64,000 nucleotides of DNA from Minisyncoccota bacterium (GCA_031291825.1 JARLIG010000004.1:22240-86239), one strand, 5' to 3'. Shown: positions 57,341 to 64,000, counted from the first letter of the stretch. Notes: a model not told the origin generated them from the letters alone. Numbers and translations are program-made.

Positions 57341-59098
57341 ATGGACAATAAATCATCTAGACAAAAAGTAGCGCTTATCTCTGTATATGACAAGACGGGC
57401 ATTAAAGAATTTGCAAAAAATCTAGTAGATTTGGGCTGGAAAATAGTCTCTTCTGGTGGCACAGCTAAACATTTAACAGAAGCGGGTATGCCCGTGACTG
57501 ACGTAGCGGAAATTACCGGCATGCCACCAATTCTTTCACACCGAGTTTTGACGCTACATCCGAAAATCCATGGCGGGCTTTTGGCGCTTGATACATCGGA
57601 GCATTTAGCAGAGCTGGAAAAATATGGGATTCCTTGGATTGATTTAGTTTGTTGTGATTTATATCCACTGGAGGAGGAAATAAAAAACTCTAGCGCGACG
57701 CGAGAATCAGTTATTGAAAAAACAGATATTGGTGGACCGACAATGCTTCGTTCGGGGGCAAAAGGGAGGCGCATAACTATTTGTGACCCGAGCGATAGAG
57801 AAAAAGTAATTGAGTGGTTAAAAAAAGGCGAGCCTGAACGTGAAGAATTTTTAAATAATTTAGCAGCTAAGGCGGAAGCAGTAATTGCAAAATACTGTTC
57901 TGCTTCTGCCGAGTATCACAGTAAAGGAGAGCTCAAAGGAATTTTTGGAAAGAAAGAAATAGAATGCGCATATGGGGAAAATGCATATCAAAAACCAGCC
58001 AGCTTATATAGAAATTTAAATGTGCATAACACTCCAGACGGTGGACGTCTGGAAGCTACCAGACGTCCAACGTCTGGAGACCCATTAGCCATACATAATT
58101 GGCAACTCGTGGCAGGCAGTCCGCTTTCCTATAATAATATTTGCGATGTGGATAGAATGATGCAAACGATGACACATATTGGCGCTGGTTTTGAGAAAAA
58201 TTTTGGAAAAGTTCCAGACATCGCGATTGGCGCAAAGCATGGCAATGCTTGTGGGGCAGCGTTTGCTGAAGAAGAAATTAATGCGATTGATAATATGCTC
58301 TTGGGAGACTTGCGCGCAATTTTCGGCGGTTCGGTGATGCTAAATTTTAATGTAGATGAAAAAATTGCGGAAGAATTAATCCATAAATATGCAGGTGCTG
58401 GGAGACGATTGCTGGACATTGTCGCGGCACCATCTTTTTCTGCCGAGGCTATAGAGATTTTATCTCGCAAAAAAGGTAAATGCAGAATTTTAGTAAATCC
58501 AAACATTTTGAAAGCAGGATTATCTTCTTTGGATACAACTTCTAGGTTTCGTTACGTGCGTGGGGGATTTTTGACTCAACCGAATTATACTTTTGTTCCA
58601 AGATTGCAAGAGCCAGAGATGTCGGTATTCCGCCAAGGCGGAAGCCCGACACCTGTGGCGATTATACAAGATGTCATTCTCGCTTGGGCTGTCGGATGCA
58701 CATCAAATAGCAATACAATTACAATTGTGAAAGATGGCAGACTTTATGGCAATGGCGTAGGACAACAAGACCGTGTAGGGGCCGCCAAGCTTGCAATTTT
58801 TCGCGCAGACGATGCCACCGCTTTTGCTGTGGATAACCCTCCAGACGTTGGACGTCTGGAAGCTTCCAGACGTCCAACGTCTGGGACAGGGGCTGATTTA
58901 GAAGGGGCTGTAGCTTGCAGTGATAGCTTCTTTCCTTTCCCAGATGCGCCGGAAGTACTAATAAATCGGGGGATAAAGACCATCTTTTCCACTAGTGGCT
59001 CAGTAAATGACGATAAAATTATAGAACTTTGCAAGACAAAAAACGTAAATCTAATAATGCTTCCAGACTCTGAAGCCAGGGGATTCTACCAGCATTAA
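57341..59098 (+). CDS. purH: Bifunctional AICAR transformylase / IMP cyclohydrolase (PurH) carrying two in-frame REP-like insertions.
   Basis: The N-terminal MGS-like motifs are ALISVYDKTGI...SSGGTAKHL...RVLTLHPKIHGG. The C-terminal AICARFT motifs are SPLSYNNICD, ACSDSFFPFPD and FYQH. The inserted peptides are PDGGRLEATRRPTSGD and PDVGRLEASRRPTSGT. Confidence 0.75.
   Translation: MDNKSSRQKVALISVYDKTGIKEFAKNLVDLGWKIVSSGGTAKHLTEAGMPVTDVAEITGMPPILSHRVLTLHPKIHGGLLALDTSEHLAELEKYGIPWIDLVCCDLYPLEEEIKNSSATRESVIEKTDIGGPTMLRSGAKGRRITICDPSDREKVIEWLKKGEPEREEFLNNLAAKAEAVIAKYCSASAEYHSKGELKGIFGKKEIECAYGENAYQKPASLYRNLNVHNTPDGGRLEATRRPTSGDPLAIHNWQLVAGSPLSYNNICDVDRMMQTMTHIGAGFEKNFGKVPDIAIGAKHGNACGAAFAEEEINAIDNMLLGDLRAIFGGSVMLNFNVDEKIAEELIHKYAGAGRRLLDIVAAPSFSAEAIEILSRKKGKCRILVNPNILKAGLSSLDTTSRFRYVRGGFLTQPNYTFVPRLQEPEMSVFRQGGSPTPVAIIQDVILAWAVGCTSNSNTITIVKDGRLYGNGVGQQDRVGAAKLAIFRADDATAFAVDNPPDVGRLEASRRPTSGTGADLEGAVACSDSFFPFPDAPEVLINRGIKTIFSTSGSVNDDKIIELCKTKNVNLIMLPDSEARGFYQH
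58024..58081. repeat. REP-like element inside purH: TGTGCATAAC-ACTCCAGACGGTGGACGTCTGG-AAGCTA-CCAGACGTCCAACGTCTGGAG.
   Basis: It is a double hairpin plus a TGTGCATAAC tail, and it is in-frame in the CDS. Confidence 0.8.
58828..58887. repeat. REP-like element inside purH: GTGGATAACC-CTCCAGACGTTGGACGTCTGG-AAGCTT-CCAGACGTCCAACGTCTGGG.
   Basis: It is a double hairpin plus a GTGGATAACC tail, and it is in-frame in the CDS. Confidence 0.8.
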
Positions 59099-62063: not shown

Positions 62064-62104
62064 AAAAAAGATGTCCCCAGTTAAGACTGGTTGACATCTT
62101 TTTT
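62064..62104 (+). terminator. Terminator hairpin AAAAAAGATGTC-CCCAGTTAAGACTGG-TTGACATCTTTTTT.
   Basis: It shares stem sequence with the 60587 terminator. Confidence 0.65.
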
Positions 62105-62119
62105 GTTATAGTCTATACT
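62091..62119 (+). promoter_or_regulatory. Sigma-70-type promoter TTGACA-N17-TATACT, probably the rRNA promoter.
   Basis: A consensus -35 TTGACA at 62091-62096, a 17-nt spacer and a TATACT at 62114-62119 lie about 330 nt upstream of the 23S 5' end. The promoter overlaps the 3' arm of the terminator. Confidence 0.55.
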
Positions 62120-62946
62120 CGTTTAATCAGTATGATAATCACAAGAAACAGTTTAAGAAGGCGGCGCTAAGAGCAGACTTTCTTTGTCTGTTAGGGCCGC
62201 TCAAAAAGCGGTTTTTTTTGTGGAAAAATCAGGACGAATGACACTTTGAAAACTTAATCCCTGTTCTAAAACTTTTAAGGGGTCTTTGTTGTGACGGTCA
62301 AACGTTACAGGAAGGGTCTTCCTCTTAAAAATTAGAGATAGGAAAAATTCTTTTTATTTAATTACCAGAGCGGTCTGGAATTATAATTAATTCAAAAGGA
62401 TTTGTTTTATCCCGGCGTAAAGTCGGGATTGTGATTTATAAATTTCTTAACAGGAAATTTAAGGGCGTACGGTGGATGCCTAGACTTTAAGAAGCGATGA
62501 AGGACGTGGCGTTGCTGCGATAAGCTTCGGGGAGGTGCTTAGCAACCTTTGATCCGGAGATTTCCGAATGGGGAAACCCTATCAAGTAAACCTTGATAAT
62601 TTTTATCTTTATGATAAAAGAGCGCACCCTGGGAAGTGAAACATCTCAGTACCAGGAGGAGTAGAAACAAATATGCATTTCCTTAGTAGCGGCGAGCGAA
62701 AAGGAAGAAGTCCAAACCGTTCTCGCAAGAGGGCGGGGTTGTAAGATGACAATTTTTATTTAATTAAAGAGGAGTCAAAAAATAAGTTATTAGCTTAAGT
62801 TGCTGGAAAGCAACACCATAGGAGGTGATAGTCCCGTGAGCGAAAATTTCTTATCTCTTTTATTGTTATTCTTGAGTACCCCAGGACATGAATGGCCGGG
62901 GGGAATCCAGCGGAACTAACCGCTAAGACTAAATATTCTTAAAGAT

Positions 62947-62983
<37 letters not shown>

Positions 62984-63713
62984 CAGCCCGATTAGGGCGG
63001 TGAAATAGACCTGAAACCGTATGTCTACAAGGAGTTGAAGCAGGTATTTATATCTGCGACAGCGTGCCTATTGAAGAATGAGCCAACGAGTTTATTCATG
63101 CTGCTGGTGAAGTGGACTAAAACCACAGAACCAAAGGGAAACCGAGTGTTAATAGCGCGAAATAATAGTAGCATGCATAAGACCCGAAGCCAGGTGAGCT
63201 TGCCATGAGCAGGATGAAGGAGGTCGAAAGATCTCTGGAGGTCCGAACGGGTAGATCGTACAACGTCTTCCGATGACTTGTGGTAAGGAGTGAAAAGCTA
63301 ATCGAACCTGGTAATAGCTGGTTCTCTCCGAAATAGCTTTAGGGCTAGCGTCGTATGTTTTTTCTGGGGGTAGAGCACTGGAAGGTTTCGACAGGGAGCA
63401 ATCTCGCGAAACCTATCAAACTCCGAATACCAGAGACCATAGCGCGGCAGTTAGGCCATGGGGGCGAAGCTCCATTGGCCAAAAGGGAAACAGCCCGGAT
63501 CTCAAAATAAGGTCCCTAAATATATACTAAGTGTAAGACAAGAAGGTGAGATTTCTTTAACAATGAGGAGGTTGGCTTAGAAGCAGCCATCCTTTAAAGA
63601 TAGCGTAACAGCTCACTCATCTAGAGATTTTGCGTCGAAAATAATTGGGGCTAAGTATATTACCGAATTTGAGGATTCGTAGACTTCATACAGATTTTTT
63701 GTACATTGTTTTA

Positions 63714-63790
63714 GCGGGAGTAACGAAAAGCACTCAAACAGGAGTGCCAGGCGTTAATAATTTGGGGTTCAATTCCCCCCTCCTGCGCCA
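63714..63790 (+). ncRNA. Second, non-canonical 77-nt tRNA-like element (acceptor plus T arm plus CCA; the D arm is not foldable).
   Basis: The acceptor is GCGGGAG/CTCCTGC (6 Watson-Crick pairs plus one GU). The T arm is GGGG-TTCAATT-CCCC. The discriminator is G, followed by CCA. An internal hairpin GCACTC-AAACAG-GAGTGC replaces the normal D/anticodon arms. Confidence 0.2.
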
Positions 63791-63797
63791 AGTGTGT

Positions 63798-63908
63798 CGA
63801 GACGTAGCGCAGCCCGGTAGCGCATCAGACAAGAGTAAAGTGTCTAGCTTAATCAAAGGCACTGCACCTATCTGAGGGTCGGAGGTTCAAATCCTCCCGT
63901 CTCGACCA
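63798..63908 (+). tRNA. tRNA-like element with a perfect acceptor, D and T arms and encoded CCA, but a 41-nt anticodon loop (possible ~34-nt intron).
   Basis: The acceptor is CGAGACG/CGTCTCG (7/7). The D arm is GCGC-AGCCCGGTA-GCGC. The anticodon stem is TCAGA/TCTGA. The variable region is GGGTC. The T arm is GGAGG-TTCAAAT-CCTCC. The discriminator is A, followed by CCA. Confidence 0.35.
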
Positions 63909-64000
63909 TCTTTCTCAAGTGAGAGAGTATTTGTTTTTCCCAAGCGGGATTTTAAGATTTCGTTTGGGGTCTGTATGAAGTCTACGAGTGGTAGGAGAGT

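Follow-up and report, generated by a model that had tools for sequence, protein, structure and literature searches.

tRNA-derived modules within a helix-45 insert of a Patescibacteria 23S rRNA gene

We analysed a stretch of 64,000 nucleotides (nt) from a Minisyncoccota bacterium (GCA_031291825.1, JARLIG010000004.1:22240-86239), referred to below as the window, at whose end a 23S rRNA gene is interrupted by an insert carrying two tRNA-like modules. The Rfam model LSU_rRNA_bacteria (RF02541) matched the window at 62449-64000 with 960 bits, covering model positions 1-1237 with ∼315 surplus bases. The insert (63675-63989, 315 bases) stands in place of positions 1164-1185 of E. coli 23S rRNA, the tip of helix 45, because in an alignment with E. 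coli rrlB its flanks ACCGAATTTGAGG and GGTAGGAGAG correspond to positions 1151-1163 and 1186-1195, respectively. In the Rfam alignment, the first bases of the insert fall within the helix-45 hairpin of the model. A preliminary description of this DNA had placed an intervening sequence at helix 45, and both alignments bear out this location. The features of the locus, all on the plus strand, are as follows.

62449-63674, + strand: 23S rRNA gene, 5' portion as far as the 5' base of helix 45 (Rfam RF02541, E. coli alignment).
63675-63694, + strand: 5' strand of the basal helix, an extended helix 45 and candidate RNase III substrate (inverted repeat, family covariation).
63695-63713, + strand: U-rich leader ahead of element 1 (read from the sequence).
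63714-63790, + strand: element 1, a tRNA-like module without D arm (sub-threshold Rfam tRNA score, fold).
63798-63908, + strand: element 2, a cloverleaf derived from tRNA-Pro (intron-aware ARAGORN, minimum-energy fold, tRNA-Pro identity).
63830-63870, + strand: 41-nt substitute for the anticodon loop of element 2 (ARAGORN, fold).
63910-63927, + strand: hairpin with a U-rich run behind it, immediately downstream of the element 2 CCA; resembles a terminator or boxB (flagged as terminator-like).
63938-63969, + strand: terminal hairpin adjoining the 3' strand of the basal helix (fold prediction, family recurrence).
63970-63989, + strand: 3' strand of the basal helix (inverted repeat, family covariation).
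63990-64000, + strand: resumption of the 23S sequence (E. coli 1186 onward), up to the window end (E. coli alignment).

The ends of the insert form an inverted repeat (63677-63694 and 63970-63987) that is complementary at 18 of 18 positions and is the sole long pair in this region; the flanking repeat of 17-18 base pairs (bp) noticed earlier is therefore real. The basal helix formed by it is a perfect 18 bp, or 20-24 bp when G-U pairs are counted. The fold of the entire insert had a z-score of -8.7, with none of 100 shuffles being as stable, and the two hairpins at 63910-63927 and 63938-63969, folded together, gave z = -6.2.

Element 2 consists of four stems, namely the acceptor CGAGACG/CGTCTCG (with C1-G72), the D arm GCGC-AGCCCGGTA-GCGC with G18 and G19, the anticodon stem TCAGA/TCTGA and the T arm GGAGG-TTCAAAT-CCTCC, together with a variable loop of 5 nt (GGGTC). 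It also keeps U8, A14, the T-loop consensus, A73 and an encoded CCA. The 21 stem pairs and the bases of the tertiary interactions are all intact despite the destroyed anticodon loop. The preliminary description had called this element a near-perfect cloverleaf, and we recovered it in two ways: intron-aware ARAGORN returned a tRNA(aga) with a 34-nt 'intron', and the unconstrained minimum-energy fold was itself the cloverleaf (z = -3.0; 0/200 shuffles as stable). Without the 34 nt, annotated E. coli tRNA-Pro genes align to 95% of the element at 82-84% identity. This match was seen in every E. coli genome compared, and it confirms that the cargo is of tRNA ancestry.

The anticodon loop of element 2 is replaced by the 41-nt stretch, which forms an extra stem (AGUGUC/GGCACU) in the predicted fold. 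None of the eight excision registers yields a 7-nt loop with U33, and RF00028 (group I intron) gave no match in this stretch. As no register restores such a loop, element 2 is, judged from its sequence, a tRNA-Pro derivative unable to decode and not an intron-containing tRNA gene. Further copies of the 41-nt stretch or of the two modules were found neither in the window nor in the loci we fetched nor in viral contigs. We also observed that positions 63839-63863 of the loop contain TAGCTTAATCAAAGGCA, which resembles a tRNA D arm (GCTT-AATCAA-AGGC) and has a weak BLAST match to one of the related loci described below (L004). Element 2 may thus be a chimera of two tRNA-derived pieces.

Element 1 was present as a 77-nt tRNA-like unit with the TTCAATT T loop and CCA noticed earlier. 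It has a 7-bp acceptor GCGGGAG/CTCCTGC with a G3-U70 pair, a T arm GGGG-TTCAATT-CCCC, G73 and an encoded CCA, and a long central arm with a 6-nt loop stands where the D and anticodon arms would be (fold z = -3.8). No similarity of element 1 to any E. coli sequence was detected. A transfer-messenger RNA (tmRNA), one-piece or two-piece, was considered and rejected, since neither the tmRNA mode of ARAGORN nor Rfam reported one in the insert; the resemblance of element 1 to tmRNA is limited to G3-U70 and CCA. Default ARAGORN, and Rfam at its gathering score, called neither element. From these sequence features, we prefer to describe elements 1 and 2 as tRNA-derived modules that do not decode, and not as tRNA genes.

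The remaining content of the insert was also searched. No group I or group II intron family of Rfam matched it at the gathering score or at E ≤ 10, which leaves it without a recognisable self-splicing ribozyme. Its only open reading frame (ORF), at 63645-63872, has no Pfam match, and the protein-coding type of intervening sequence was rejected on this ground. Other Rfam families, Y-RNA-like ones included, gave chance-level matches only, and target-site duplications, reverse transcriptase or transposase were not found in the insert.

We then scanned public genomes and metagenomes for the 23S 13-mer GTAACAGCTCACT followed, 133-163 nt downstream, by the generic T-loop motif GGTTCRANTCC. As this 13-mer is not universal (the Rfam consensus and E. 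coli show T where the anchor has C), any restriction to one group applies to the 23S genes that share the anchor. The genome scan returned 20 loci, all 20 labelled Patescibacteria, the Candidate Phyla Radiation (CPR); their labels were Saccharibacteria, Paceibacteria, Nomura-, Kaiser-, Wolfe- and Woesebacteria. The metagenome scan returned 41 loci, of which three (L029, L041 and L039) were false positives outside 23S genes and were discarded. Besides the window there are thus 58 true loci, and with the window's own insert counted there are 52 distinct inserts. The 23S sequences closest to the window among those found were L028 (91.7% identity), L042 (90.5%) and L001 (84.9%). The last is labelled Candidatus Nomurabacteria, and these 23S neighbours therefore place the host in the Patescibacteria (CPR), as a Nomurabacteria-like member.

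Each insert holds one to three tRNAs or look-alikes, occasionally more. ARAGORN found 82 tRNA-type elements within the helix-45 inserts, all 82 on the 23S strand, and none elsewhere in the scanned loci. Ordinary CPR tRNA genes with which the CCA encoding and loop quality of the cargo might be compared were sought outside the inserts and were found neither in these loci nor in the window. In seven loci, Rfam tRNA matches of 40-71 bits were nested in the LSU matches, that of L001 being full-length. A native 23S expansion without any cloverleaf potential, the contrary case raised in the preliminary description, was not seen, as related 23S genes carry tRNAs or look-alikes at this site. In the longest related inserts (L024, L052 and L007), no other known RNA was found by Rfam at the gathering score. 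On this sequence evidence, the helix-45 spacer with tRNA cargo is a class that was recovered here only from Patescibacteria.

The framework of the spacer is conserved. A basal helix of 19-25 contiguous bp is present in 49 of the 51 related inserts, and the basal helix of the window is homologous to the family consensus core (…CTTCAT… / …ATGAAG…). In an alignment of the 38 distinct basal helices, 98.4% of the cells were paired compared to 30-45% in slid controls, a percentage that is partly built in because the strands were picked by pairing. The compensatory changes are not built in: double-sided changes were observed in 19 of the 21 pairs of this ∼21-bp helix. A terminal hairpin against the 3' strand of the basal helix is predicted in most of the 51 inserts, and a hairpin follows the cargo element on its 3' side in 30/75 cases in the family, compared to 9/75 in shuffles.

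A short motif recurs in the same inserts. The heptamer GTTCTTT was present exactly once in 41 of 60 sequences screened (1.85 in shuffles), the 60 including L039, which was later discarded as non-23S. The octamer TGTTCTTT occurs 33 times inside inserts and nine times in the remaining ∼350 kb, frequently just behind the post-tRNA hairpin, which gives the order tRNA, hairpin, TGTTCTTT. The 23S leaders of 36 loci essentially lacked it (six relaxed matches), and it is therefore specific to the spacer. An example lies in L004, at locus-oriented position ∼99 past the anchor, and L038/L058 have the variant TGCTCTTT. The octamer is the published boxA core of a 16S-23S spacer, that of Taylorella, in which boxA is TGTTCTTTAACA (PMC2666751). 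A role of TGTTCTTT as an antiterminator (boxA) is a candidate reading, as yet unproven. In its sequence layout, the insert resembles a tRNA-bearing transcribed spacer in miniature, set within the 23S gene.

The cargo within this framework varies widely. Among 72 distinct cargo elements, 38 have a usable anticodon loop and 34 do not; the defects in the latter are 6- or 8-nt loops, missing U33, missing purine 37, A34 and stop anticodons. The anticodon arm has been extended or deleted independently in several lineages (L002, L007, L018/L054, L038/L058, L059 and the minihelix of L010/L047) with the acceptor, D and T arms left intact, and the extensions are of differing lengths. CCA is encoded in 42 of the 72 distinct elements and in both window modules. 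Some of the cargo looks like genuine tRNA; the tRNA-Ala of L017 and L031, for example, is identical in the two loci and has G3-U70 and A73. Comparison of L017 (5091-5540) with L031 (700-1145) showed that the framework and the middle tRNA-Ala are common, and that the two loci differ in the sequence of the first and of the third element, with a Trp anticodon loop kept in the first element of both. This pattern points to a cassette-like replacement of single elements. Likewise, 23S genes 85-92% identical to that of the window have the same basal helix and other cargo elements.

The alanine identity pair G3-U70 was observed in nine of 73 distinct cargo elements, in addition to element 1 of the window. 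The carriers are L011/L036/L045, L020, L049, L052, L054, L056 and L061. Six of the nine are without an Ala anticodon, and L061 has TGC in a defective loop. These elements could be acceptor-stem-only substrates of alanyl-tRNA synthetase, or the pair could be there by chance.

We propose that the insert is a helix-45 spacer excised by RNase III, with its modules set free by RNase P and 3' trimming and the 23S rRNA left in two pieces, and we consider this reading probable. Its observed basis is the site, the helices, the tRNA ancestry, a canonical anticodon loop that has been lost, and an arrangement that recurs and covaries across the CPR; from these we infer each of the cleavage steps, the fragmentation of 23S and any role of the released RNAs. 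The insert would be transcribed within the pre-23S rRNA, and its basal helix would be cleaved by RNase III. RNase P would cut at the 5' ends of both modules (63714 and 63798), and 3' trimming would halt at the encoded CCA. The spacer would be removed without religation, with the 23S rRNA functioning as two pieces. The tRNA-shaped modules would be processing handles at minimum, and would probably also be freed as small stable RNAs of ∼77 and ∼111 nt. Such processing is plausible because CPR genomes keep RNase III (rnc), RNase J (rnj) and PNPase (pnp) (PMC12641178).

A further-reaching version of this proposal, which we regard as possible and hold only tentatively, is that helix 45 of the CPR has become a genuine internal transcribed spacer, serving as a cassette for tRNA expression and processing, and that cargo of the window type consists of selected non-decoding RNAs. 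If true, the spacer would house tRNA genes that some lineages need, with the recurrent tRNA-Trp(CCA) and tRNA-Ala(UGC) as candidates, and the fragmentation of 23S would be linked in its mechanism to RNase P-mediated tRNA processing. The non-decoding cargo could then be RNase P handles or released RNAs with a new job, for instance a G3-U70 module charged as an acceptor-stem-only substrate for a non-ribosomal use.

Several observations weigh against the excised-spacer proposal. The Rfam tRNA model scored 21.4 bits (E = 0.039) on element 1 and 16.5 bits, as a local match, on element 2, both below the gathering score of 29. Sub-threshold covariance-model scores for both elements are one of the outcomes that the preliminary description had named as refuting it, and it is intron-aware ARAGORN that calls element 2. 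Element 1 is without a D loop, which leaves the elbow used by bacterial RNase P incomplete. The window is devoid of an exact TGTTCTTT and has only two-mismatch versions, at 63700 and 63932, the former being the degenerate copy in the leader (TGTACATT, 63700-63707). Finally, L028 and L042 carry wholly different cargo. As these are the nearest 23S relatives, the two modules of the window are not conserved, and they could be young or decaying.

The last of these observations leads to the alternative that survives best, namely that the insert is an ordinary RNase III-excised intervening sequence whose modules are decaying copies of tRNA genes that came to lie in unconstrained sequence, neutral relics with no processing role and no function after release. 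Besides the complete difference in cargo between ∼91%-identical 23S genes, it is favoured by the exchange of whole elements between L017 and L031, by the sub-threshold and non-decoding state of both window elements, and by the lack of a detectable tRNA parent of element 1 in E. coli. Against it, the 21 stem pairs and the tertiary bases of element 2 are intact beside a destroyed anticodon loop, and damage has struck the anticodon region repeatedly and independently across the family. The non-decoding elements of the family are also paired as well as the decoding-type ones (20.4 bp in 34 elements versus 20.6 bp in 38), an equality that is partly due to ascertainment, since ARAGORN reports well-paired candidates only, and that counts for less in favour of our proposal on this account. 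The uniform orientation of the cargo with 23S (82/82) is a further point against relics, and the strongly reduced genomes of the CPR are expected to delete junk. We therefore regard neutral relics as rather unlikely, with some weight remaining on this explanation.

Another alternative is that the modules are copies of mature tRNAs, or the cargo of a small mobile element that targets helix 45. The frequently encoded CCA and the quick turnover of cargo within a conserved framework fit such an origin. Encoded CCA is, however, normal for many bacterial tRNA genes, and the hallmarks of mobility (target-site duplications, reverse transcriptase, transposase) are missing from the insert; nothing was found in viral contigs, and the 41-nt stretch and the modules are single in the window and occur in no other locus. 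We consider a mobile origin improbable.

Even less probable is that the mature large subunit retains the insert, with helix 45 extended at its surface. Helix 45 lies on the surface of the large subunit, a position with which a retained segment is compatible. However, the inserts of relatives hold high-scoring tRNAs of correct identity, such as the tRNA-Ala of L017 and L031, that could function only if excised, and the long regular basal helix has the appearance of an RNase III substrate. The ribosomes of the CPR are otherwise reduced (PMC12641178).

The preliminary description had read the 41-nt loop as if it held an intron of ∼34 nt, and this part of it did not stand. A working tRNA gene from which 34 nt are spliced to give a decoding tRNA would agree with the tRNA(aga) call, but the U33 loop is restored in no register, the body is tRNA-Pro-like and not Ser-like with its 5-nt variable loop, the known bacterial tRNA introns are group I introns of a couple of hundred bases or more for which no ribozyme was found here, other lineages have extensions of variable length, and bacteria are not known to possess a tRNA splicing endonuclease of the archaeal/eukaryal type; the intron reading is hardly credible. 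Introns in anticodon loops do occur in Patescibacteria, where group I introns have been described in tRNA genes (PMC13011429). Element 2 is similar to these in phylum and in having an interrupted anticodon loop, and differs from them in that its interruption is of 34-41 nt, contains no ribozyme and does not allow a canonical loop to be restored.

The excised-spacer proposal has precedents in known systems. Intervening sequences at helix 45 that are excised by RNase III are classical in Salmonella, Campylobacter, Yersinia, Leptospira and others. The present insert resembles them in its site (∼1164-1185), in having its ends in a long helix and in lacking a ribozyme; excision without religation and a fragmented 23S would be expected here as well. 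The classical examples are not known to contain more than the stem-loop or, in some species, a small protein gene, whereas in the window and the 58 CPR loci tRNA genes or modules lie in the orientation of 23S, accompanied by additional hairpins and mostly by the boxA-like motif, and the insert of the window is two to three times longer. The classical sequences are also summarised by Tsurumaki et al. 2024 (PMC11270868), who reported short, uncharacterised, ORF-less, non-intron insertions at the site 23IS4 of CPR 23S genes and proposed them to be intervening sequences of the RNase III type. The 23IS4 insertions are very probably the same objects as the CPR helix-45 spacers described here. The word tRNA is absent from the main text of that paper, and the cargo and the framework are not reported there.

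The closest parallel in layout is the 16S-23S spacer, as in E. coli rrnB with gltT. In both cases tRNAs are co-transcribed between the strands of a long processing helix, the order tRNA, hairpin, TGTTCTTT of the family matches the boxB-boxA layout, and RNase III and RNase P are the expected cutters. In contrast, the CPR spacer sits inside the 23S gene and about half of its cargo is non-decoding; furthermore, an exact boxA-like motif is wanting in the window, and the related loci essentially do not have the motif in their 23S leaders. Processing signals of tRNA-like shape are known from plant mitochondrial t-elements, MALAT1 mascRNA and the tRNA punctuation of mitochondria. They too are non-decoding tRNA shapes embedded in a longer transcript that needs cutting, with a conserved acceptor/T-arm half recognised by RNase P and 3' processing enzymes. 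As they belong to another domain of life and to other host transcripts, they offer an analogy in the way of working and not a class to which the modules would belong.

Intervening sequences at helix 45 and tRNA genes in rRNA spacers are textbook knowledge; tRNA modules inside a 23S intervening sequence are not. Full-text literature searches turned up no account of a 23S intervening sequence with tRNA cargo, consistent with the earlier impression that the arrangement is undescribed. tRNA genes nested in an rRNA gene would give the core translation machinery of bacteria a new layout, and would show how a one-piece rRNA comes to be two pieces parted by a spacer with its own processing signals. 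An analogous step is thought to underlie the eukaryotic 5.8S/ITS2/28S (ITS2, internal transcribed spacer 2) and the plastid 23S/4.5S arrangements. With the modules, bacteria would also offer a case of tRNA-like RNAs in which the shape is conserved and decoding is not, making the idea of tRNA as a processing signal testable in bacteria. On the practical side, tRNA inventories and 23S annotations of the CPR may err if rRNA-nested tRNAs are discarded or if degenerate copies are mistaken for suppressor tRNAs or for tRNAs with odd anticodons.

The surroundings of the 23S gene in the window were also inspected. No 16S gene was found within the 62 kb upstream (window 1-62448), and the rRNA genes are therefore unlinked. 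Default ARAGORN and Rfam reported no conventional tRNA gene in the whole 64-kb window. A promoter-like sequence that was called strong, TTGACA-17-TATACT, lies upstream of 23S at 62091-62119. Genes near 23S encode L10, L7/L12, PurH and surface proteins, and the G+C content is ∼39%.

Some minor observations were made in the related loci and in the window. Group I introns, which are known in 23S genes of the CPR, lie farther downstream in the same 23S genes of L001 (1013-1252) and L005 (7512-7983), with RF00028 scores of 68 and 53 bits, respectively. In L059, ∼2341 nt downstream of the helix-45 anchor and beyond the insert, an extra TGTTCTTTT directly precedes a tRNA-like start, GGGGAGACGTAGTTTA, at which ARAGORN called no tRNA. 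The window itself contains a 44-nt near-perfect palindrome (CCAGACGTTGGACGTCTGGAAG|CTTCCAGACGTCCAACGTCTGG) in two copies (58034-58077 and 58841-58884), with no third copy anywhere in the 64 kb. Both copies sit in frame within a purH-like ORF (57341-59098), each contributing the peptide GRLEA(T/S)RRPTSG, and they resemble palindromic elements, such as those of Rickettsia, that enter genes without breaking the reading frame.

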